Below, piece after piece: positions 48,898-60,062 of a stretch of 64,000 bases of DNA. A model generated the notes under the pieces. The model had not been told where the DNA came from, made no database searches, and saw only the letters and a list, made by a program, of their open reading frames with translations. Position 1 is the stretch's first letter. The number at the start of each line of letters is the position of its first letter. Made by a program: the position numbers and the translations under genes. Origin of the DNA: Bacillales bacterium UBA3566 (GTDB taxonomy: Bacteria > Bacillota_I > Bacilli_A > Izemoplasmatales > Izemoplasmataceae). Where the stretch lies: the NCBI GenBank assembly GCA_002376065.1, contig DFNN01000135.1, forward strand, positions 1,339 through 65,338. Direction: 5' to 3'.

Positions 48898-50946
48898 ATG
48901 CTATTTCTTTTTAATAACCCGTTGTTATTGATTGGATTATTATTGATTTTGACGTTGATGTTTTTACTAGGAAAGCAAATGGTAAAAGAGATACATTATA
49001 ACCATCTGCTGGCACATAAAAAAAGAGCTTTACGATATTATGATGGAGAAGTACCAACCAATAAAAGGTTATATATGATTGGAAGTCTAGCGCTTGCTCC
49101 TGTACTTGTTATAGGTTTGTTTTTGGGGATTAGATTATCAGCGGATGATGCGTTTGTTGATGATCAATTTTTACAGATTTCAAACGGACAACAAATTGTC
49201 GAATTACAAAAAGATTTCCGTGAGAAATATTTAACAAGCTATCGTAATTATCTATTTGGTTTTGCTATGATGGAAGACGATTTTACTGCTGTACCAGAAA
49301 CCGATGCATCTGAAGATGCAGGAGGAGAGGGCAGTGATGATTACTCTGATACCAACAATCAAGTTGAAGGTGTAGATGAGATGGATAACGTTGTGACTGA
49401 TGGGAAGTTTATTTATACTATTCAACAGAATAAAATTGTTATTACATTGGCTTATACTTTAGAAGACGAATATGATGTGTTAGGGCACTACAAAACAATC
49501 ACTTATGAAGATAGTTTTAACCCTACAGGACTCTATATTGATGATGATTATCTTGTTGTTATTGGATATGATTATATGCAATATGATGAGAAACAAAATG
49601 ATGACGTGGGTTTACCAGAAGGTGATTATTACTACGGATATTACTATCAAAGTCAAGTTGGAGTTAAAGTATATGATGTGAAAAATGATTATACAATAGA
49701 TCATTCTTACCTTTTTGAAGGTAATATGATTGGGACTAGAAAAATAGAAGATCAGTTGATTATCATTACATCTAATTATTTACCTTATTCAGAAGAAGAG
49801 GAAATAAATATGGATGAATACTTGCCAACTTACTATGTGGATGAACAAGAGTTTGTTGCTGATTATGAAGATGTTCGTTACATAGAAGGTAGTAATCCAA
49901 ATGTATTTTTAACGTTCTATAGTTTGAATCTAGGAACCAAAGAAGTGGATCAAAATATTTTATTGGGAGACTCTGCTTATAACTTATATGTCTCTAATGA
50001 CAATATTTATTTGGTCGGAAGTGTTTATATGTTTTCTCCTTTGGCGGATGTTGTAAATTTAGAAGATCCGATAACAGAAACAAAAACAGCGATTATAAAA
50101 TTATCAATTGATGAATATGATTTGACATTTAGAAATCTTGCTCATATTGAGGGATTTACCTTAAATCAGTTTTCAATGGATGAATATCAAGGGTATTTAA
50201 GAATCACAACAACGACCAGTAGATGGCGTTTTGGTGATGGTGAAATCAATAATAGGTTGTACATTTTAGATGAAGAATTAAACATTGTAAGTGAACTTGA
50301 AAACCTCGGGAAACCAGGAGAAACGATCCAATCTACGAGATTTGTTGGAGAGTATGCGTATTTGGTCACATTTGAACAAACAGATCCATTTTACGTTATT
50401 AATGTTGCTGATCCAGAAAATCCATTCGTAGAAGGTGAATTAGAAATACCTGGATTTAGTGCCTATTTACAACCATTCGGGCAAGACTTTATGCTTGGGA
50501 TAGGGTTTGGAGATTCCAAAGGTGGAACACAAGGTGTGAAGATATCACTTTATGATATTCGTGATAAAACTAACCCATTAGTTCATGATGAAATTATTTT
50601 TGAGTATAGTGAATTTGGTTTTGCTTATACAAGTGTTACATATAATCATAAAGATTTGTTGTTGAGTTATGCGAAAGGTTTAATCGCGTTGCCGTTTACT
50701 TCATATGATTATTCTAGTGAAAGTGGCCAATACTATAATAGTGGGATCATGGTATTTCATATAGATGATGAAGGAATGTTTTCATTTGGTGGATTTGTGC
50801 AACACGAGGAAGATTCGGAAGAAAATATCTATGTGTATAAGAGTAAGTTTATCGATCAATATCTATATACAGTAAGCAATAAATATATCAAAGTATCAAC
50901 GATTGAAGATCCATTAGGTATACTTAACAGTACAGAAATAGAGTAA
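48898..50946 (+). CDS. membrane-anchored beta-propeller domain protein (COG4880 / Beta_propel family)
   Basis: N-terminal TM helices. TNNQVEGVDEMDNVVTDGKFIYT and RFVGEYAYLVTFEQTDPFYVINVADPENPFVEGELEIPGFSAYLQP match the family signature as I remember it. Confidence 0.75.
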   Translation: MLFLFNNPLLLIGLLLILTLMFLLGKQMVKEIHYNHLLAHKKRALRYYDGEVPTNKRLYMIGSLALAPVLVIGLFLGIRLSADDAFVDDQFLQISNGQQIVELQKDFREKYLTSYRNYLFGFAMMEDDFTAVPETDASEDAGGEGSDDYSDTNNQVEGVDEMDNVVTDGKFIYTIQQNKIVITLAYTLEDEYDVLGHYKTITYEDSFNPTGLYIDDDYLVVIGYDYMQYDEKQNDDVGLPEGDYYYGYYYQSQVGVKVYDVKNDYTIDHSYLFEGNMIGTRKIEDQLIIITSNYLPYSEEEEINMDEYLPTYYVDEQEFVADYEDVRYIEGSNPNVFLTFYSLNLGTKEVDQNILLGDSAYNLYVSNDNIYLVGSVYMFSPLADVVNLEDPITETKTAIIKLSIDEYDLTFRNLAHIEGFTLNQFSMDEYQGYLRITTTTSRWRFGDGEINNRLYILDEELNIVSELENLGKPGETIQSTRFVGEYAYLVTFEQTDPFYVINVADPENPFVEGELEIPGFSAYLQPFGQDFMLGIGFGDSKGGTQGVKISLYDIRDKTNPLVHDEIIFEYSEFGFAYTSVTYNHKDLLLSYAKGLIALPFTSYDYSSESGQYYNSGIMVFHIDDEGMFSFGGFVQHEEDSEENIYVYKSKFIDQYLYTVSNKYIKVSTIEDPLGILNSTEIE

Positions 50947-50954
50947 ACAAAAAA

Positions 50955-50988
50955 AAGGACACACTTTTTATAAGTGATGTCCTTTTTG
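50955..50988. terminator. bidirectional hairpin terminator between convergent genes
   Basis: AAAGGACACACTT...AAGTGATGTCCTTT imperfect stem flanked by an A-run and a T-run. Confidence 0.65.
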
Positions 50989-51072
50989 ATATCATTAAAA
51001 GGCAACTTTTTATCTGTTTTGATACCTTTCCTGACTATTTTTGATAAAATAATTGAAAATCTAATATAGTTT

Positions 51073-51591
51073 TTATAAGCGATCTTTGAACAAATTATGT
51101 CCATGAACATCATATGCAACAAAGCAAGGGAAATCTTCTACCTCTAACTGATAGATCGCCTCAGCACCTAAATCTTCATAAGCAATTAATTTACTTGATT
51201 TAATTCTACTGCTTAGTAGAGCACCTGCTCCACCAGTCGCAATTAAATACACAGCATTATTTTTCATCATTTCATGACGAAATTCTTCACTTCTATCACC
51301 TTTACCAATCATGATTTTTAATCCTTTTTCCATAAGGGGTACAGCCATTTCATCCATACGATAACTTGATGTTGGACCACTCGCACCAATAGCAAATCCT
51401 TCTTTTTTTGGTGTCGGTCCAACATAGTAAATGATACTTCCTTCAATCGGAAATGGTAGATTTTTTTCATTTAACAATCGTATGTGTGCTTGATCTCTAG
51501 CAGTATATATGGTACCAGTAATTAGTACTTTGTCACCACTTTTTAGGTTATTGATGTCGTGATTACTAATAGGTGAGCTTAATCGTATCAT
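51073..51591 (-). CDS. class I Fe-S hydro-lyase beta subunit (fumarate hydratase / L-tartrate dehydratase type)
   Basis: MIRLSSPISN...GTIYTARDQAHIRL...GPTSSYRMD...KGDRS. ATGA overlap with the alpha-subunit stop at 51588-51591. GGTGA RBS. Confidence 0.88.
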   Translation of the reverse strand: MIRLSSPISNHDINNLKSGDKVLITGTIYTARDQAHIRLLNEKNLPFPIEGSIIYYVGPTPKKEGFAIGASGPTSSYRMDEMAVPLMEKGLKIMIGKGDRSEEFRHEMMKNNAVYLIATGGAGALLSSRIKSSKLIAYEDLGAEAIYQLEVEDFPCFVAYDVHGHNLFKDRL

Positions 51592-52427
51592 AAAATCACC
51601 TCGATGTGTCTTGCAGAGTGACATTGAATGTTGATTGCTACTGGTAAACTAGCGATATGCATTGGAAGATAATTTATTTTTACCGCAAGACAAGTAGTGT
51701 CACCACCGACGCCCATAGGACCGACGCCTAATTTGTTGATTTCATCATAAAGCTCATCTTCTAATCTAGCTATAATAGGATCATCACTTTTATCTCCTAA
51801 TGGTCTTAACAATGATTCTTTGGCGATGATTGCACTTTTTTCAAAATTTCCACCTAGACCAATACCGACAATAATTGGTGGACATGGTTTTCCTCCTGCT
51901 TGAAAAACAGTGTCAAGCACGAGTTTTTTAACGCCATCAATACCAGCTGCGGGCGTGAGCATTTTTACTGTGCTCATATTTTCACTTCCGCCTCCTTTTG
52001 AGGCGATTTTCAAAGTAAGTTTATCACCCTTTACATAAGAAAGGTGGATCATAGCTGGTGTATTGTCTTTTGTGTTTACTCTTTCAAATGGATGATTAAC
52101 CATAGACTTTCTGAGATATCCTTCGCTGTATCCTTGTCTAACTCCTTCATTGATAGCATCGTAGATATTTCCATCTATATGAACATCAAATCCAACTTCA
52201 GCAAAAACAACAACAACACCCGTGTCTTGGCATAATGGAACATTACCTTCTTTAGCTATTTCACTATTTTCGATGATGTCATCAAGTATAGAAGAAGCGA
52301 TATTTGAACGTTCTTTCTTTTTCGCTTTTTGAATTAAAGAGATTAACGAATCATCTAGTTCATAGTTTATTTTTATTACCGAATCTTTTATAGCCTCGGT
52401 AATGATTGATGGATCAATAAAACGCAT
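51588..52427 (-). CDS. class I Fe-S hydro-lyase alpha subunit (fumarate hydratase / L-tartrate dehydratase type)
   Basis: 279 aa. PLCQDTGVVVVF and the cysteine pattern of the 4Fe-4S hydro-lyase family. Confidence 0.88.
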   Translation of the reverse strand: MRFIDPSIITEAIKDSVIKINYELDDSLISLIQKAKKKERSNIASSILDDIIENSEIAKEGNVPLCQDTGVVVVFAEVGFDVHIDGNIYDAINEGVRQGYSEGYLRKSMVNHPFERVNTKDNTPAMIHLSYVKGDKLTLKIASKGGGSENMSTVKMLTPAAGIDGVKKLVLDTVFQAGGKPCPPIIVGIGLGGNFEKSAIIAKESLLRPLGDKSDDPIIARLEDELYDEINKLGVGPMGVGGDTTCLAVKINYLPMHIASLPVAINIQCHSARHIEVIL

Positions 52428-52841: not shown

Positions 52842-52868
52842 GAGCCCATTTGGGCTCTTTTATTTTTT
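52842..52868 (+). terminator. rho-independent terminator of rpmE
   Basis: GAGCCCA / TGGGCTC stem followed by T-rich sequence. Confidence 0.8.
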
Positions 52869-52880
52869 AAAAAATAGATT

Positions 52881-52917
52881 TAAAAATACGGCAAACAATT
52901 GGATTATTGTTTGCCGT
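52881..52917 (-). terminator. terminator of the hyd-like operon
   Basis: ACGGCAAACAAT / ATTGTTTGCCGT 12-bp stem. T-rich tail on the minus strand. Confidence 0.8.
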
Positions 52918-52926
52918 TTAATTTTG

Positions 52927-54684
52927 TTAATCTTTGTAGTATTTTCTTGGAGAATATTGAATATGTAGTAAATCTTGTGCAAGTTCAGAACCAATATGTT
53001 TGAAGAAGTCATTATAGATATTTGATGCTTCTTCAGAATAACAATTATAACGAATTTCTTTATCATTAACTGAGTCGTTTAAAGCTTCTGCACGTAAGCC
53101 AATGACGTTAAATCCATCTTGTACTTTTGATGGTTGAATTGGACTTCCACCACCTACAACGTTGCTATTTTGTGATGATGCCATTTCGACATAATCATAC
53201 GTCTTATTAACCGCTTTTAATACTCTAAAGAATTCTTTTATAGATTTCACATGACTGATTCTTGCGATAGATATTTTTTTACCATTTAGATGATAGCTAG
53301 CCTCTTCAATTTTTTCGTTCTCTTTTGAAGGTGTAAAAGTCATTTCCTGTACATCTTCTTGCAATAACTGAGAAGCAGTCTTGAAAGTAGCTTCAGCAAA
53401 TCCAATATTAGGATGTAATACATCTTCCTTGAATACCTTGCTTGCAAGTTCTCCATGAGGTTTGCTTGATGGAGCAAGAGCTAATAAATCAATTCCTTGA
53501 CGTTTTAGTAGTCTTGCAAATTCACTAGTTGTAATAACATGATCAACATCTGCTAATCCACGATAACTATTTCCAGAACGTTTTGCATCATGTTTACGAT
53601 CAATTCTAGGTACAACTGCTACAACAATTGTGTCTGCTTTGTTGTAACCTAATTTTTCTGCAAAATAGTGTTTAACAAGAGCACCTGCAACTAGCTCAGC
53701 CGGTTTTGCACTTGTAACGTTTGACAAATAATCTGCTTCGTATTGTTCGATGTATTGCATCCATCCAGGTGCATTTGAAGACAAAAATGGAGTAGATTCA
53801 TCTTTAGAAAGACGATCAATTAACTCATTACTTTCCTCGATGATTGATAAATCCTTACCTAATGAATAATTCATTACATCGTCAAATCCTAACAATTGAT
53901 AAGCTTCGTTTAATTGACCTTCAACGTTTGCTCCTAATTTCGCTCCAAAATCTTCAGCAACTGTAACAGCAACACTTGGAGAAGGAATGATAATTACTTT
54001 TTTAGTTTCATCTTCTAGTGCGGATAACACATTATCTACTTCAGGTTTAGGTTTGATTGCAGCGACAGGACAAACTTCGATACATTTTCCACACTCAATA
54101 CAACCACTATCAGCCATACTATGAAATAAAGCTGGACCAACATAAGTTTCATTTCCACGTTCATTAAAATCTAAAATATTTAATTCGGTGAACTGCTTAC
54201 AAGCACTAACGCAGCGACCACATAAAATACATTTTCCACTATCTAATAAAATCGAGTCAGAAGTGTCATTTATTTGGCGGTCTTTTTTAAAGAAATCTCG
54301 CAAGTTTTCTCCGAAAACATTATCAACGTCATAACGACGCATTAAATTAAGTAGTTCACAACTTGTTTCGCGGTCACATGCCCAGCATTCAAACACATGA
54401 TTACTCGCAAGTAATTGCAAGTTTTGTATAATAGAATCACGAATTTCTTTTGAATCAGTTTCAATTTCCATTCCATCTTGTAATGCAAGTGTACATGAGT
54501 TTTTTAATCCTCGCATATTTTTTACATTTACAACACATAAACGACATGCACTTGTTTCGTTAATATCTTTTAGAAAGCATAGTCTAGGGATATTATAACC
54601 CATTTCTTCTGCTGCGCGCATTGCTGTATAGTTTTCAGGGACAGTGGTTTCAATACCGTTGATTGTAATTTTCACATTTTTCAT
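52927..54684 (-). CDS. HydA-like [FeFe]-hydrogenase-family subunit with intact accessory Fe-S motifs but a degenerate (Cys-less) H-cluster site
   Basis: N-terminal 2Fe-2S motif (C..CRLC..C), HxxxCxxCxxxxxC, and two CxxCxxCxxxC ferredoxin motifs are present. The H-domain aligns throughout with clostridial HydA. However, TSCCPGW reads SSNAPGW, MPCxxKxxE reads VPRIDRKHD, and MACxGGCxxGGGQP reads ASSQNSNVVGGGSP. Confidence 0.85.
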   Translation of the reverse strand: MKNVKITINGIETTVPENYTAMRAAEEMGYNIPRLCFLKDINETSACRLCVVNVKNMRGLKNSCTLALQDGMEIETDSKEIRDSIIQNLQLLASNHVFECWACDRETSCELLNLMRRYDVDNVFGENLRDFFKKDRQINDTSDSILLDSGKCILCGRCVSACKQFTELNILDFNERGNETYVGPALFHSMADSGCIECGKCIEVCPVAAIKPKPEVDNVLSALEDETKKVIIIPSPSVAVTVAEDFGAKLGANVEGQLNEAYQLLGFDDVMNYSLGKDLSIIEESNELIDRLSKDESTPFLSSNAPGWMQYIEQYEADYLSNVTSAKPAELVAGALVKHYFAEKLGYNKADTIVVAVVPRIDRKHDAKRSGNSYRGLADVDHVITTSEFARLLKRQGIDLLALAPSSKPHGELASKVFKEDVLHPNIGFAEATFKTASQLLQEDVQEMTFTPSKENEKIEEASYHLNGKKISIARISHVKSIKEFFRVLKAVNKTYDYVEMASSQNSNVVGGGSPIQPSKVQDGFNVIGLRAEALNDSVNDKEIRYNCYSEEASNIYNDFFKHIGSELAQDLLHIQYSPRKYYKD

Positions 54685-54695
54685 TGTTCAACCTC

Positions 54696-56486
54696 CTACG
54701 TTGTAATGATCGCATCAACTGGACAAACGTTTTGACATGCGCCACATTTGATACAAGCCGATTGATCAATCGTATGTAATTGTTTAATGGTTCCTGAAAT
54801 ACAGTCAACAGGACAGTTTTGAGCACATTTTGTACATCCGATACATTTATCAGTGATAAAGAAATTGATTAGCGCTTTACAAACTCCACCAGGACATGTT
54901 TTATCAACTACATGAGCTTCAAATTCATCTCTAAAATGATCTAGCATAGATAGAATTGGGTTAGGGGCAGCTTGTCCAAGACCACAAAGTGAAGAACTTT
55001 TAACCATTTTTGCTAAAGTTTCAAGTTGATCAATTGTTTCTAGTGTTCCATGTCCTGAAGAAATGATGTTTAGCATTTCAAGCATTTTCTTTGTACCTTC
55101 ACGACAAGGAGTACATTTACCGCAAGATTCGTCAACAGTGAAGTCTAAATAGAATCGGCAAATATCGACCATACAGCTGTCTTCATCGATGACAACCATA
55201 CCTCCAGACCCCATCATAGAACCTGCATCAATTAATGTTTCATATTCAATCGGAATATCAAGTAAGTGTTCAGGAATAGCACCACCTGAAGGTCCTCCTG
55301 TTTGAACCGCTTTTAAAGCTTTATTGTTTGGAATTCCTCCACCAATATCATAAATAACATCGCGTAAAGTTGTTCCAAGTGGAACTTCCACGAGTCCAGC
55401 ATTTACGATGTTTCCACCTAAACTGAACACTTTAGTTCCTTTGTTTTTATCAGTTCCAACACGGCCAAACCATTCTGCGCCATTAAACATGATGGCAGGA
55501 ATGTTTGCTAACGTTTCTACGTTGTTGATGATTGTAGGTTTTCCCCATAATCCTTTAGCTGCTGGGAATGGTGGTTTATTACGAGACATACCACGTTCAC
55601 CTTCAATAGAAGCGATTAATGCAGTTTCTTCTCCACATACAAATGCTCCTGCACCTAAACGAATTTCAATATCAAAACTAAAATCTGTTCCAAAGATATT
55701 ATTACCAATCAAACCAAGTTCTTTTGCTTGTTTGATTGCATTTTTCAATTTCTCAATTGCAGTTGGATACTCAATTCTTACATAAATATAACCTTTACTT
55801 GCACCAATTGCATATCCGGCAATCATTAGACCTTCCAATATACTGTGAGGATCTCCTTCTAAAATGGCACGATCCATAAATGCCCCTGGGTCACCCTCAT
55901 CAGCGTTACAAATAACGTACTTTTGATCGCTATCGTTGTTATAAGCAAAGCCCCATTTGACACCAGTAGGGAATCCTCCCCCACCTCGACCACGTAAACC
56001 TGATTCAGTCATTTCATCAATAACTTCTTTAGGAGTCATGTCAAGTAATGCTTTACCTAAACCACGGTAACCATCTTTTGCGATATACTCTTCTATATCA
56101 TCAGGATTGATAAATCCACAGTTACGCATTGCAATTTTATATTGTTTTTTGTAGAAACGAACTTCATCTAATGCAAGAACTTCTTTGGTTTCTGTTAATG
56201 CATCATTAAAAACAAGCTTTTCTACTATACGACCTTTGTATAGATGTTCTTCACAAATTTCTTTTATATGTTTTGGTTTGATTTGTGCATAAAAAACACC
56301 CTCAGGATATACGATAACAAAAGGTCCTTGCTCACATAACCCAACGCACCCTGTATTTACCAATTTTATTTCACTTCTTATGTCTAGTCTGTCTAAATGT
56401 TCTTCAAACTCATCACGCAACGTTTTCGCACCACGTGAGACACAGTTAGAACCACTACAGATTAGAACGTGTGCTCTTTCTAACAT
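54696..56486 (-). CDS. HydB/NuoF-like NADH- and FMN-binding Fe-S subunit
   Basis: N-terminal thioredoxin-like 2Fe-2S domain, FMN site GRGGGGFPTG, CGKCTPCREG 4Fe-4S motif, and two C-terminal CxxCxxCxxxCP ferredoxin motifs. Confidence 0.92.
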   Translation of the reverse strand: MLERAHVLICSGSNCVSRGAKTLRDEFEEHLDRLDIRSEIKLVNTGCVGLCEQGPFVIVYPEGVFYAQIKPKHIKEICEEHLYKGRIVEKLVFNDALTETKEVLALDEVRFYKKQYKIAMRNCGFINPDDIEEYIAKDGYRGLGKALLDMTPKEVIDEMTESGLRGRGGGGFPTGVKWGFAYNNDSDQKYVICNADEGDPGAFMDRAILEGDPHSILEGLMIAGYAIGASKGYIYVRIEYPTAIEKLKNAIKQAKELGLIGNNIFGTDFSFDIEIRLGAGAFVCGEETALIASIEGERGMSRNKPPFPAAKGLWGKPTIINNVETLANIPAIMFNGAEWFGRVGTDKNKGTKVFSLGGNIVNAGLVEVPLGTTLRDVIYDIGGGIPNNKALKAVQTGGPSGGAIPEHLLDIPIEYETLIDAGSMMGSGGMVVIDEDSCMVDICRFYLDFTVDESCGKCTPCREGTKKMLEMLNIISSGHGTLETIDQLETLAKMVKSSSLCGLGQAAPNPILSMLDHFRDEFEAHVVDKTCPGGVCKALINFFITDKCIGCTKCAQNCPVDCISGTIKQLHTIDQSACIKCGACQNVCPVDAIITT

Positions 56487-56497
56487 CTTCTCACCAC

Positions 56498-56863
56498 CTA
56501 TATTCTATATTTACCAATGACATAATCATCTACAACTTTGCCACCAATAATATGTTCTTTTATGATACGATCTACTCCATCAACATCAACCTTGCAGTAA
56601 GTCGTTCTTTTGTCGTCAATTAGTACCTCAACGATTGGTTCAATAGCACACTCACCGATACACCCTACAGGTGTAATCGTAACGTTTTCTAGATCTTGTT
56701 TATCAACTATTTCAACAAACCTATTCATTACTGGACGTGCACCAGCACTGATTCCACAAGTAGCCATACCAACAAGAACACGAATACCATCGTTTTTCCC
56801 GCGCATTGTTACTTTCTTCTGTGCATTATCTCGAATCTTTTTTAAATCATCTAAAGATTTCAT
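56498..56863 (-). CDS. thioredoxin-like [2Fe-2S] ferredoxin
   Basis: 121 aa. GMATCGISAGA and GCIGECAIEP motifs typical of the small ferredoxin encoded in HydABC operons. Confidence 0.8.
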   Translation of the reverse strand: MKSLDDLKKIRDNAQKKVTMRGKNDGIRVLVGMATCGISAGARPVMNRFVEIVDKQDLENVTITPVGCIGECAIEPIVEVLIDDKRTTYCKVDVDGVDRIIKEHIIGGKVVDDYVIGKYRI

Positions 56864-57417
56864 TTTGTTTCCTCCTTATGTATATTGTTAAGTCCTTCTC
56901 TTATATATTCTTTCATCCATTGCGTTACTCCGTGCGCAGTGAATGGTGTATCCTCTAATATTTCTCGAATTTTTCTAGTATCAAATTCGAATCTATTTTC
57001 ATTATATTGGTGACTATAAAATATATCAATGAATTTATCATTTAAAGCTAATATAACTAATGTATCTTCGATATCTCCAAGCGGAGCCAAATCAATATGA
57101 TCTAACTCAAATGTCGCTTTAATTTTTGTACCTATTTGTTCTTTTGATTCAATCTTTAGTGTACCGTTGGTCGCTTCTGCTGACATTTTGAATAAGGAAA
57201 TACCCAGACCAACTTTTCTTGTTGTTCTAGTGGTATAAAAAGGATCGGATACATGAGATAAAGTTTCTTCATTCATACCATGTCCATCATCAATAATTTC
57301 AATAGATAAACTATTTTTTTCGGTGTTTTCCACTATGAAAATTTGGATTAATGAGGCATTTGCATTGATAGAGTTTTGGCAAACATCTAATATATGAAGA
57401 GACAATTCTTCCATCAT
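56860..57417 (-). CDS. stand-alone GHKL (HATPase_c) ATP-binding protein
   Basis: 185 aa. N-box LDVCQNSINA, G1 DDGHGM, G2 GLGISL. No HisKA or phospho-acceptor His region. Confidence 0.7.
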   Translation of the reverse strand: MMEELSLHILDVCQNSINANASLIQIFIVENTEKNSLSIEIIDDGHGMNEETLSHVSDPFYTTRTTRKVGLGISLFKMSAEATNGTLKIESKEQIGTKIKATFELDHIDLAPLGDIEDTLVILALNDKFIDIFYSHQYNENRFEFDTRKIREILEDTPFTAHGVTQWMKEYIREGLNNIHKEETK

Positions 57418-58115
57418 TTTTCACCTCTTAAATAATCGAAAAATGCATCAATCGTTTTTTCCTTTAAATCAATATAATTGGTTTTTTCTGAAATCATTGG
57501 TAAAGAATGTGCATCAGAATTATGAAAGATTTTATATTGGGTTAAAGAAGGATATTTTTTTAAGAAGGGATCGATGTTTTGACTTTGCAATTCTACGCCA
57601 TCAAATTCAAGTTCTTCTAAAGAGTAAGTATCTAAAGGTGTCTGACTAGGCCTATCAATATGAGCTAATATGATTGCACCATCAAGTTTTCTAACCTTGG
57701 TTATTAAGTCTTTATAAGCGATACTAGTATGTGTCAGTGGTCTTTCTACAGTATCTATTTCAGTATCATAAACATCTGTAATTACTTGATCACTTTCAGA
57801 AAAATTCTTCCATTCTCCATCGAGATGGACTTGTAAAAATTGATCAAATGTTGCTGCATCTTCGTATGTACGAAAATAGCATAGTGCATCAAAATTTTCA
57901 TTTACAGTCACTTCAACAGCTGGAATATATAAGAAATCATAAGAATCTTCTAACTGTCTAATTGTAGGTAGTTGTCTAGTTGAATTGTGGTCTGTAATTG
58001 CAACAATATCAAGACCTTTTAACATTGCCATGTTTAGAACATTATTGGGGGTCATAAGTTCATCTGCGCAAGGGGATAAAATGGAATGGATGTGCAAATC
58101 ATAAAAGAGTTTCAT
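57414..58115 (-). CDS. PHP-domain phosphoesterase
   Basis: YDLHIHSILSPCAD, ITDHNS, and HNSDAH metal-binding histidine motifs. Confidence 0.75.
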   Translation of the reverse strand: MKLFYDLHIHSILSPCADELMTPNNVLNMAMLKGLDIVAITDHNSTRQLPTIRQLEDSYDFLYIPAVEVTVNENFDALCYFRTYEDAATFDQFLQVHLDGEWKNFSESDQVITDVYDTEIDTVERPLTHTSIAYKDLITKVRKLDGAIILAHIDRPSQTPLDTYSLEELEFDGVELQSQNIDPFLKKYPSLTQYKIFHNSDAHSLPMISEKTNYIDLKEKTIDAFFDYLRGEK

Positions 58116-58447
58116 TTTCCATCCAACTTTGCAAGCGCAATAATTGCATCAACGGTTGAGAAAGTAGTTGTAAATAGTGGGATATTTAACTCGTTTGCTT
58201 TATCAATCAGTTCTTTTTTTACAGTAATTCCTTGTGTAAAAACAATACAAGAAAGATCGTTTAAACTAGCGACACCGATAACGTTAATATTATTGAGCAT
58301 TGTAATTAAACAATCATTTTCTTCAGTTTGTCCCATTACATTGCTCAATAAATCTGATGCGAATAGTTTGTTGACGGTTTTTGTTAAATCGTGAACTGAA
58401 TTAATAAGTGTGAAAGTCTCATGATTGGCAATATCATTTGTGGTCAT
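58112..58447 (-). CDS. DRTGG-domain-like protein
   Basis: 111 aa. LITMLNNINVIGVASLNDLSCIVFTQG...ELIDKANELNIPLFTT resembles the DRTGG fold pattern. Confidence 0.5.
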   Translation of the reverse strand: MTTNDIANHETFTLINSVHDLTKTVNKLFASDLLSNVMGQTEENDCLITMLNNINVIGVASLNDLSCIVFTQGITVKKELIDKANELNIPLFTTTFSTVDAIIALAKLDGK

Positions 58448-58471: not shown

Positions 58472-58894
58472 TTATTGTTGTGTGTAAAATTTCATAAACA
58501 GTTGGGTTCCTTCTTCATTTGATTCTAATGTCATTTCATCTGAAACAGCTTTGATATTTGGTAATCCCATTCCAGCACCAAATCCATTTTCAATTGCATA
58601 TGGACTAGCAGTGGAAAATCCAGCTTGCATTGCGTTTTCAATGTTAGGTATACCTGGTCCTCGATCGCAAAAAGTGATTTCGCATAAATCATCACCAATA
58701 TGAATTCTCGCATTACCACCATAGGAGTGGATAACAACATTAATCTCAGCTTCATACACACCGATGGTTACACGCTTGATAAATTGGGGACTAAATCCTC
58801 GTTTTTTTAACTCTCGCTTAGTCAAACTTGCAATGGTCCCAGCGTTTCCAATATCATTACGTTCAATTGGATACTCTTCTAAGTAATCACTCAA
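58472..58894 (-). CDS. RsbW/SpoIIAB-like GHKL ATPase (anti-sigma-factor-type Ser kinase fold)
   Basis: 140 aa. EAEINVVIH N-box, DRGPGIPN G1, GFGAGMGLPN G2. Confidence 0.7.
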   Translation of the reverse strand: MSDYLEEYPIERNDIGNAGTIASLTKRELKKRGFSPQFIKRVTIGVYEAEINVVIHSYGGNARIHIGDDLCEITFCDRGPGIPNIENAMQAGFSTASPYAIENGFGAGMGLPNIKAVSDEMTLESNEEGTQLFMKFYTQQ

Positions 58895-59283
58895 GAATTT
58901 TCTTCCTCGAGAACAGACTCGTAGCTCTTAACGCCGTTCATAAATAATAAACCACTTGTTCGATACATTGTTAAAGCAGTACCAATCAAAGTAATGCCGA
59001 TTTCATCAGCTAAATCAATAACTGATTGTGAGGGAGTTTTTCCTCGAACGAAGATTATTGTTTCTAAATCTAGTATTTCTGCTGTACGCAAAGCTTGATT
59101 TGTCACCAAACCAGTAACAAGTGCACCATGAGCTCCAATATGGCTAGGCATTTTTTTGAGTAACATAAGAGCATCACTCATCAAATCACAAACAAAAGCA
59201 TAATTGATTTCTTTGACACATTGTGGACATTCCAAATTAAATTGTTTTGCTTCTAAAAGAGTTAAAACGTCATTTAATTCCAT
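58891..59283 (-). CDS. DRTGG-domain-like protein
   Basis: 130 aa. GALVTGLVTNQALRTAEILDLETIIFVRGKTP...VIDLADEIGITLIGT. Confidence 0.5.
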   Translation of the reverse strand: MELNDVLTLLEAKQFNLECPQCVKEINYAFVCDLMSDALMLLKKMPSHIGAHGALVTGLVTNQALRTAEILDLETIIFVRGKTPSQSVIDLADEIGITLIGTALTMYRTSGLLFMNGVKSYESVLEEENS

Positions 59284-59768
59284 TATTTTTTCCTATATTC
59301 TTTGATCAATTTTTTTGCTTTTGTGATTGTCATTTCACCATGTACATCTTCGTCAAAACTCATTACTGGAGCCATTCCACATGTACCAATACAACGTATT
59401 GCTTCTAAAGTATAATAACCATCTTCCGTTGTCTCACCAACTTCAAGTCCTAATTCTTTTTTTACAGCATCTAAGATTACTTGTGCTCCACGAACGTAAC
59501 ATGGAGTACCCAAACATGCGGCAATTGTGTGTTCCCCTTTTGGGATCATTGTAAAACTTGAATAAAAGGTGACTACACCGTTGATTTCAGCAATGGTTAC
59601 ACCCGTTGCTTCTGAGACGATTTTTTGCACCTCTAAAGGAATACATCCAAAAATTCTTTGTGCTGAATGCAGTATTGGCATTAGCGGTCCAGGGTTTTTG
59701 AGATGTTCATCTATCTCTTGAAGTAATTCTTGTTTTTTGTCTTCGGATATTTCAAAATTCTTACCCAT
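59283..59768 (-). CDS. HydC/NuoE-like [2Fe-2S] subunit
   Basis: 161 aa. CLGTPC (Cx4C) and CIGTC (Cx3C) thioredoxin-like 2Fe-2S motifs. Confidence 0.9.
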   Translation of the reverse strand: MGKNFEISEDKKQELLQEIDEHLKNPGPLMPILHSAQRIFGCIPLEVQKIVSEATGVTIAEINGVVTFYSSFTMIPKGEHTIAACLGTPCYVRGAQVILDAVKKELGLEVGETTEDGYYTLEAIRCIGTCGMAPVMSFDEDVHGEMTITKAKKLIKEYRKK

Positions 59769-60062
59769 AATCTTCTCCTTACTGAAATATTATTTTAGAT
59801 TCCAAACAATTATAACATAATTGTAATTTTTTATAAAGTCTATGAGAAGAAAATTCCAGTTAATTTTTAAACTTTATAAATAAAAATAAAGGCTTTTGTA
59901 AGGCCATTTAAAGAATCAAAAAAGAAGAATTTCGCCTTTACAATTATGAACAAAATATAATATATAATAATTCTTAATAATAATTATGAGATTTTTCAAT
60001 TCATAGTTGAGTTTTCTTGGAGTGTATTGTATGATAAGAATATCAAAAATGAGGTGAATCTG

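Follow-up and report, generated by a model that had tools for sequence, protein, structure and literature searches.

The stretch of DNA analyzed here (64,000 nucleotides of contig DFNN01000135.1 from Bacillales bacterium UBA3566, a wall-less marine fermenter belonging to the Izemoplasmatales; hereinafter the window) codes for a full-length orthologue of HydA, the subunit that bears the H-cluster active site in the [FeFe]-hydrogenase HydABC, in which every ligand of that cluster has been lost. The gene, which we term hydA* (52927..54684, minus strand; product HydA*), runs without interruption across 585 codons, evolves under purifying selection, and lies at a chromosomal locus at which comparable losses recur in related organisms. 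HydA* is a direct descendant of the catalytic subunit of a bifurcating hydrogenase (HydABC, Bfu family), and its condition is no one-off but a recurrent state of one locus across the Izemoplasmatales, including the published genome of Candidatus Izimaplasma bacterium HR1. Because no residue is left for either the [4Fe-4S]H cubane or the di-iron bridge, HydA* would be unable to make or split H2, and we infer that it is without hydrogenase activity.

In phmmer searches of the PDB, residues 1-580 of HydA* align with HydA1 of A. woodii (7q4v_A, E 2e-97), HydA1 of T. kivui (8a6t_A, E 1e-90), and the C. pasteurianum hydrogenase CpI (E ~1e-83). A prior reading of the window from its letters alone (hereinafter the sequence-only reading) had proposed an unbroken, full-length HydA homologue with its N-terminal Fe-S motifs kept, and both proposals hold. 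Pfam recovers Fer2_4, NADH-G_4Fe-4S_3, two Fer4 domains, Fe_hyd_lg_C (E 8e-47), and Fe_hyd_SSU (E 1e-7), and detects no catalytic domain in HydA* besides the degenerate H-domain. The N-terminal accessory Fe-S module (residues 1-215; 54040..54684, minus strand) comprises a [2Fe-2S] site, a His-ligated [4Fe-4S] site, and two ferredoxin-type [4Fe-4S] sites, whose 16 ligands (C36/47/50/64, H96/C100/103/109, C152/155/158/162, and C195/198/201/205) are all present and invariant in a 34-sequence alignment; the protein thereby has the NuoG-like Fe-S chain of a BfuA subunit. The remainder (residues 216-585; 52930..54039, minus strand) is the degenerate H-domain, recognized by Pfam and further characterized below by structural modeling and substitution rates. 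On TIGR02512, the NCBIfam model for group A [FeFe]-hydrogenases, HydA* scores 273.7 bits and falls below the cut-off of 405.95, whereas a canonical sister (P0006) passes with 422.7 bits.

All three signatures of catalytic group A [FeFe]-hydrogenases are lost from this domain in residue-level alignments. Of these, L1 normally supplies the relay Cys and a Cys or Ser that ligates the cubane, L2 a cubane Cys and the CN-binding Lys, and L3 a cubane Cys along with the bridging Cys. L1 (canonical TSC(C/S)PGW) survives as SSNAPGW (residues 302-308; 53761..53781), L2 (canonical MPCxxKxxE) as VPRIDRKHD (residues 358-366; 53587..53613), in which the MPCxxKK stretch reads VPRIDRK (residues 358-364), and L3 (canonical E.MACxGGCxxGGGQP) as EMASSQNSNVVGGGSP (residues 500-515; 53140..53187), all on the minus strand. 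The sequence-only reading had placed L1 and L2 at these same coordinates and had carried L3 one codon too far, to 53190. Alignment to HydA structures and to CpI equates C299, C300, C355, C499, and C503 of CpI with N304, A305, R360, S504, and N508, the same series of five residues that had first been read from the window, and K358 of CpI, the CN-binding Lys that hydrogen-bonds a CN ligand, with Arg363. In the active A. woodii enzyme, Ser301 replaces Cys as a cubane ligand (Katsyv 2023, PMC10021017), and the position of CpI C300 is Ser in 81 of the 84 canonical relatives of this A. woodii-type HydA subfamily. Going by these sequences, the position was already Ser in the functional ancestors and the functional reference state is C-S-C-C-C, of which HydA* has none of the five. 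As an observation in its own right, the Ser-for-Cys swap of A. woodii looks widespread across the subfamily. A separate L1 variant is found in Ca. Izemoplasma sp. GMC6 (L009; JAOZSP010000001.1, 9995-11749), whose otherwise canonical HydA reads TSGCPGW, with Gly at the relay Cys and, following it, Cys rather than the usual Ser; this protein may be in a proton-relay-less or sensor-like intermediate state.

Misalignment that conceals a Cys can be ruled out: HMMER pairwise alignments, a 121-sequence MAFFT alignment, and hmmalign agree, with no Cys at a ligand position or near any of the motifs. Sequencing or assembly error is also ruled out by the concordance of six independent assemblies (SRR11888059, SRR28220601, GCA_964655335.1, SRR12337186, SRR12337188, and SRR13270110), all of which carry the HydA* ligand state. 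The closest database proteins, with 79-99% identity, have substitutions identical to those of HydA*. To place this state in a wider context, we assembled a set of 121 sequences, namely, the window protein and its 120 nearest database proteins, among which at least one ligand is lost in 37 and all ligands are kept in the other 84. Chance is not an issue because this majority keeps every ligand and the state of HydA* recurs in its 79-99% identical orthologues. The residues that take the place of the ligands vary by lineage (NARSN, KAT-L, SATNC, CAA-C, NESSI, and DEKSW, among others).

The genomic neighborhood shows that these proteins are orthologues at one locus. Gene by gene, the order in the window matches that of Ca. 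Izimaplasma bacterium HR1 (CP009415), the series common to both being tdk, deaminase, nine-gene operon (with hydA* or its counterpart), rpmE, two fumarase subunits, LytTR, maf, MFS, tilS, hpt, and ftsH. HR1, too, encodes a Cys-less protein (TSKAPGW, MPTISSK, and YMG---SLLDGGGSP), which was deposited under the name "Iron hydrogenase 1". The flanks of the window are common to every Cys-less locus examined (L001, L002, L004, L006, L007, L089, L090, and L091) and are found again in two Izemoplasma metagenome-assembled genomes (L009 and L011) whose HydA keeps the L2 and L3 Cys. A scan of contigs returned at least four Izemoplasmatales loci, and in all of those listed the L2 and L3 Cys are intact; L1 is the above variant in L009 and unreadable in L012. 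These loci inform synteny rather than the taxonomic distribution of the state. The flanks themselves show a minor variation: a malic-enzyme gene lies 3' of the fumarase genes in HR1, L006, and L089 and is missing from the window (48898-52427) and from L007, in both of which the gene for the fumarase beta subunit is directly followed by one for a 682-aa beta-propeller protein.

HydB, which provides a marker separate from HydA, was used for a tree rooted with eight loci bearing canonical HydA. In this tree, the window clade falls outside a group that combines the Cys-less HR1, L091, and L089 with the canonical L009 and L011 (99 of 100 bootstraps), and the tree resolves four to five separate all-degenerate clades in 200 of 200 bootstraps. 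A tree of the HydA N-terminus alone has 10-16 all-degenerate clades, and a neighbor-joining tree of HydA with the motif columns masked likewise intersperses Cys-less and canonical proteins. That there was more than one loss is robust, and at least four are required by the HydB tree, although all three trees are distance based and the exact count is uncertain. The most divergent Cys-less lineage (L090; GCA_021736205.1, JAIPGF010000007.1, 7323-11728; protein P0086, ligand state DEKSW) is without five operon genes (those for the HATPase, DRTGG, PHP, and unknown proteins), and its HydB is reduced to 491 aa with the N-terminal 2Fe-2S domain gone; it retains hydC, the gene for the 121-aa ferredoxin-like protein, hydB, and hydA* at the same locus. 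Beyond this set, an H-domain search of 1.84 billion representative proteins recovered 1862 relatives, and among the best 150 of these, fully Cys-less proteins appear to be confined to this lineage, with the power of the comparison limited by clustering at 50% identity; one is HR1-like by its ligand pattern, and P0260 and a short fragment, P0169, were placed by length and ligand pattern. The same representative library holds a 4122-aa predicted protein (P0121) with seven separate H-domain matches (E 6e-174), which might represent either a very large fusion of several hydrogenases or an assembly artefact.

The selective regime differs sharply between the two parts of HydA*. Ratios of nonsynonymous to synonymous substitution (dN/dS) were computed by the Nei-Gojobori method for the window against each of three orthologues that are 79-81% identical, and, although they are approximate because dS is saturated (~1.5), they lie far below 1 for every operon gene: 0.03-0.05 for HydB, ~0.02 for HydC, and 0.085-0.12 for the whole of hydA*, within which residues 1-215 have 0.024-0.05 and the H-domain 0.125-0.14. 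The nonsynonymous rate by itself is five times greater in the H-domain than in the N-terminus of HydA*. The same contrast is evident in identities: at equal HydB identity (0.83-0.89), the H-domains of the canonical pair L009-L011 are 0.70 identical and those of Cys-less pairs 0.41-0.52, whereas the N-terminal identity is equal for canonical and Cys-less pairs (0.72-0.80). This H-domain-specific relaxation trend persists over all pairs of the 121 sequences. Within the window clade, however, the former motif regions are 62-80% invariant against an H-domain average of 53%. Thus, the H-domain is relaxed yet far from neutral, and constraint on the other parts of the complex equals that seen in genuine hydrogenases. 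There is not a single stop codon or frameshift in the operon genes at nine loci spanning ~50% HydA divergence, so hydA* displays none of the hallmarks of a pseudogene, be they stops, frameshifts, or neutral evolution. The sequence-only reading had argued for a maintained protein rather than a decaying one and had suggested looking for purifying selection among orthologues; the Cys-less state is indeed kept under such selection, and the concordant assemblies, the low dN/dS, the intact HydB and HydC, and the predicted fold all support maintenance, as does the presence of a ribosome-binding site, a terminator-like hairpin, and a promoter-like site in the operon.

An AlphaFold2 model built from the 34-sequence alignment predicts the hydrogenase fold confidently, with a mean predicted local distance difference test score (pLDDT) of 79 for HydA* as a whole and ~90 for the H-domain; the L3 loop (residues 501-520) has a pLDDT of 54-65. 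We take the low-confidence stretches of the N-terminus to be cluster-binding loops, which a cluster-free model would render unreliably. Foldseek superimposes the model on A. woodii HydA (7q4w_A), T. kivui HydA, and CpI with a template modeling (TM) score of ~0.7, and on this model the H-domain is predicted to have kept the fold that defines group A. As for the pocket, two residues that line the di-iron site (A230 and S357 of CpI) are each changed to Asp in 17 of the 37 degenerate sequences; the position of the CN-binding Lys is no longer conserved in this set, while its neighbor K364 is invariant; and no new Cys/His pattern is shared among the 37. Such changes in sequence would be explained better by a pocket that is filled and salt-bridged than by the creation of a metal site. 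FS4A, the cluster nearest the former H-site, keeps its ligands in all 37 degenerate sequences.

The gene hydA* is the last of a nine-gene minus-strand operon, in which hydC is followed by genes for a 130-aa protein, HATPase_c_2, DRTGG, PHP-like, and HATPase_c proteins, and a 121-aa 2Fe-2S protein, and then by hydB and hydA*. HydB (54696..56486, minus strand; 596 aa) is a Bfu-type flavoprotein with an N-terminal [2Fe-2S] site, the flavin mononucleotide (FMN)/NADH site, an N3-type [4Fe-4S] site, and two C-terminal [4Fe-4S] sites, as is typical of BfuB. It aligns with A. woodii HydB (7q4v_B, E 2e-254), including the Cys-containing cluster motifs, and almost as well with HydB of the A. mobile NiFe-HydABCSL complex (7t2r_B, E 7e-251), which marks it as a genuine Bfu-type B subunit. 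HydC (59283..59768, minus strand; 161 aa) is a NuoE-like [2Fe-2S] subunit (Pfam 2Fe-2S_thioredx, PF01257, E 6e-45), as expected of BfuC. The two partners are therefore intact by Pfam and by alignment to 7q4v_B, as the sequence-only reading had proposed. The 121-aa product (56498..56863, minus strand) is a thioredoxin-like [2Fe-2S] ferredoxin-like, HydD-like protein, for which the NCBIfam 2Fe-2S matches are weak and sub-cut-off; its gene is kept in all orthologous loci. The third-substrate module that Bfu enzymes have as a BfuA domain or as extra subunits is missing: the H-site is destroyed, and no replacement gene lies nearby. Neither the operon nor the 10 kb around it holds a candidate catalytic gene at any of nine Cys-less loci, and in the window no fdhF or molybdopterin gene lies in that span. 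A second hydA was not noticed in the window, in which no systematic search for one was made, and the CX3CX2C radical-SAM motif of hydE/hydG-like proteins is absent from the 37 screened non-operon open reading frames of at least 150 aa in the window. Among the loci listed, hydE and hydG lie beside hydA only in Natroniella (L017), which is too distant to provide bait for the Izemoplasmatales, and no maturase search was made.

Comparison with characterized systems helps define what is distinctive about HydA*. The group A3/A6 HydABC(D) complexes of A. woodii, T. kivui, and T. maritima (7q4v, 8a6t, and 7p5h) are alike in subunits, gene order, and accessory genes; their HydA has the same length, fold, and four accessory clusters; their HydB is ~70% identical to that of the window, as estimated by eye from the alignment; and sister species carry a canonical orthologue at this very position of the chromosome. 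HydA* differs in being without the [4Fe-4S]H ligands, the bridging Cys, and the relay Cys, in the replacement of the CN-binding Lys, and in its sub-cut-off score on TIGR02512. In the bifurcating formate dehydrogenase HylABC-FdhF2 of Gottschalkia (Clostridium) acidurici, HylA is likewise reported to be devoid of L1, L2, and L3 and is thought to serve electron transfer only (PMC6085437, PMC5861303). There, fdhF2 is clustered with hylCBA, whereas no formate dehydrogenase gene is found in the window operon or within 10 kb of it. A further report describes HylA as having Fe-S domains only (PMC5736913). NiFe-HydABCSL of A. mobile shares the BfuBC core, and its HydA has no H cluster (PMC9304861); its BfuA, however, is without any H-domain and NiFe SL subunits are added, whereas HydA* keeps the H-domain and nothing replaces the H-site. 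These two precedents qualify the statement in the sequence-only reading that no characterized HydABC complex is known to have a Cys-less H-domain, in that HylA is described as lacking L1-L3 (PMC6085437) and the NiFe-HydABCSL HydA lacks the H cluster (PMC9304861). Its statement that Stn enzymes are without an H-domain was correct: Stn/Nfn-Bfu of S. ovata and T. sibiricus shares the BfuBC core and has a BfuA devoid of the H-domain and endowed with a GltD-like NADPH domain. Pfam finds no such GltD-like FAD/NADPH domain in the 585 aa of HydA*, and NfnA-/StnC-type chains (9n5u_A, 8oh5_C, and 9bov_A; 963-1178 aa) align solely to its N-terminal ~215 residues. The eukaryotic Nar1/NARF/CIAO3 proteins, like HydA*, have the H-domain fold without hydrogenase activity, but they keep [4Fe-4S] Cys sites and act as stand-alone proteins in cytosolic Fe-S assembly, outside any HydBC complex (PMC12621388). 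All the characterized relatives with an H-cluster-less A subunit bring another catalytic module.

Electrons from the H-cluster of HydABC travel along the clusters of HydA to the FMN of HydB, where they are split between NAD+ and a branch through HydC and the HydB C-terminus that reduces ferredoxin (PMC10021017). Once the H-cluster is lost, what would remain is the NADH site, the ferredoxin branch, and the chain of HydA clusters. Our preferred reading, held with only a little more belief than doubt, is that HydA* serves as an Fe-S wire and as a scaffold in a flavoprotein complex that works on NAD(H) and ferredoxin independently of H2. The four accessory clusters of HydA* would form the electron wire on an unchanged HydB-HydC core, with its FMN, NADH site, and ferredoxin-side clusters, and the former catalytic domain would persist as a folded scaffold, its empty pocket occupied by polar and charged side chains. 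Electron transfer among NAD(H), ferredoxin, and the HydA* cluster chain could then proceed with no involvement of H2, most simply as ferredoxin:NAD+ oxidoreduction; alternatively, the HydA* chain might exchange electrons with another redox partner. An uncoupled ferredoxin:NAD+ oxidoreductase seems somewhat more likely than a partner encoded elsewhere because none of the independent losses goes together with a gene for such a partner. A broader proposal, which we offer tentatively and with doubt outweighing belief, is that the HydBC core and the HydA Fe-S chain have a selectable H2-independent activity of their own, such that repeated loss of the H-cluster, on no fewer than four occasions at a single locus, would have yielded a new class of Bfu-derived enzymes without a built-in third-substrate site, acting either as uncoupled ferredoxin:NAD+ oxidoreductases or as bifurcating enzymes with an unrecognized acceptor at the remodeled pocket or the exposed clusters.

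Several considerations weigh against an H2-independent wire and scaffold. Coupling is tight in genuine Bfu enzymes, which suppress the short circuit from ferredoxin to NAD+ (PMC9304861, PMC10021017), so a complex without a third site might be near inert unless its gating has changed. Rnf complexes are reported in Izimaplasma genomes (PMC6256511), and their presence would make a wasteful soluble ferredoxin:NAD+ oxidoreductase less obviously useful. The conservation of FS4A also fits electron delivery to something in or near the old pocket, and the saturation of dS tempers the substitution ratios on which constraint is judged.

One alternative explanation is that HydA*BC is a Bfu core whose catalytic partner is encoded elsewhere, with bifurcation retained and a third substrate other than H2. 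Constraint on the HydB-HydC core and on the HydA* cluster chain matches that in canonical relatives, and characterized Bfu enzymes with an H-cluster-less BfuA do use extra subunits (PMC9304861, PMC6085437); however, the neighbors of the nine Cys-less loci, where no candidate catalytic gene came to light, are the same as at canonical loci, and partner recruitment would be needed in each of at least four independent lineages, all of which makes this scenario unlikely. The remodeled pocket might instead bind a new cofactor or small substrate near the proximal [4Fe-4S] cluster and support new catalysis. This would accord with the above-average conservation of the replaced motif regions in the window clade and with the retention of the FS4A ligands in every degenerate sequence, but we consider it quite unlikely given that the replacements are lineage specific, with no common new motif from NARSN to DEKSW, and that the L3 loop is modeled at low confidence. 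Of similarly low probability is the notion that the operon is a relic in slow decay following the loss of the hydrogenase, for instance after that of hydEFG. The H-domain does evolve 2-5 times faster than the rest, the loss occurred many times, and L090 has shed the five accessory genes along with the HydB N-terminal domain; against this stand the unbroken reading frames across ~50% HydA divergence, dN/dS values of 0.02-0.14, the invariance of the Fe-S ligands and of the FMN/NADH motifs, and the retention even in L090 of hydC-fdx-hydB-hydA*.

A regulatory or sensory role, in which HydA* acts together with the HATPase, DRTGG, and PHP proteins encoded alongside it, gains some appeal from the five putative signaling genes that lie within it under purifying selection. 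It is nonetheless very unlikely: the same genes occur at canonical loci such as L009, L090 has lost them yet kept HydA*, and sensory HydS proteins keep their cluster ligands. Scarcely credible is an origin of the observed state in sequencing or assembly error, or its presence in an active hydrogenase with unconventional ligation, as six assemblies agree, five distinct positions are altered by substitutions that keep the reading frame, a cubane cannot be held by Asn, Ala, Arg, and Asn, and there is no bridging Cys. The wire-and-scaffold role in a flavoprotein complex is the one that we favor.

The remaining genes of the operon, all on the minus strand, lie between hydC and the gene for the ferredoxin-like protein. 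They code for a 185-aa HATPase_c protein (56860..57417; Pfam E 6e-15), a 233-aa PHP-domain-like protein (57414..58115; weak, sub-cut-off match to Pfam PHP and weak matches in NCBIfam), a 111-aa DRTGG-domain protein (58112..58447; Pfam E 3e-9), a 140-aa HATPase_c_2, anti-sigma-kinase-like protein (58472..58894; Pfam E 5e-11), and a 130-aa protein (58891..59283) with no match in Pfam or NCBIfam. The last of these is the most conserved protein of the operon, being 91% identical between the window and Izimaplasma HR1 (HydB, 83%) with a dN/dS of 0.01-0.05; on visual inspection, it looks like a further domain of the DRTGG type. Among the predicted signals, a ribosome-binding site (AGGAGG; 54692..54697, minus strand) lies 7 nt 5' of the hydA* ATG and overlaps the hydB stop codon, and a promoter-like site, TTTATA-17-TATAAT with TG (59809..59837, minus strand), lies 5' of hydC and is a consensus match only. 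Between the convergent rpmE and hydA* genes (52842-52917) are two palindromic hairpins with 6-bp and 12-bp stems, the latter (52888..52917) resembling a bidirectional terminator, and the two could act as such.

The published view of these genes is a different one. The Izimaplasma papers treat them as hydrogenases and predict H2 production (PMC6256511, PMC8397711), and JGI and older NCBI annotations still call the proteins "iron hydrogenase". One survey of Tenericutes reported unusual active-site residues in some gut-lineage hydrogenases, and we found no paper that notes the missing Cys in Izemoplasmatales HydA. According to one report, hydrogenase surveys routinely drop sequences without the L1-L3 motifs (PMC6085437); hence, a conserved and recurrent Cys-less lineage would have been filtered out rather than studied. 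From the ligand positions, the inference of H2 production is probably wrong for HR1, for the organism of the window, and for many of their relatives. What emerges is a Bfu/HydABC complex with a fossilized catalytic domain, in a family in which H-cluster-less A subunits were already known; its significance lies in the fact that it is conserved, has arisen repeatedly at one locus, and undermines the published predictions of H2 production for the group. It also presents a clean case of pseudoenzyme evolution, in which loss is convergent and domain-specific relaxation can be measured. More generally, the clade constitutes a natural experiment for the Bfu mechanism, with the same BfuBC core and cluster chain occurring with and without a third-substrate site at the same locus, and its matched sister pairs with and without the H-cluster allow coupling, gating, and physiological role to be compared.

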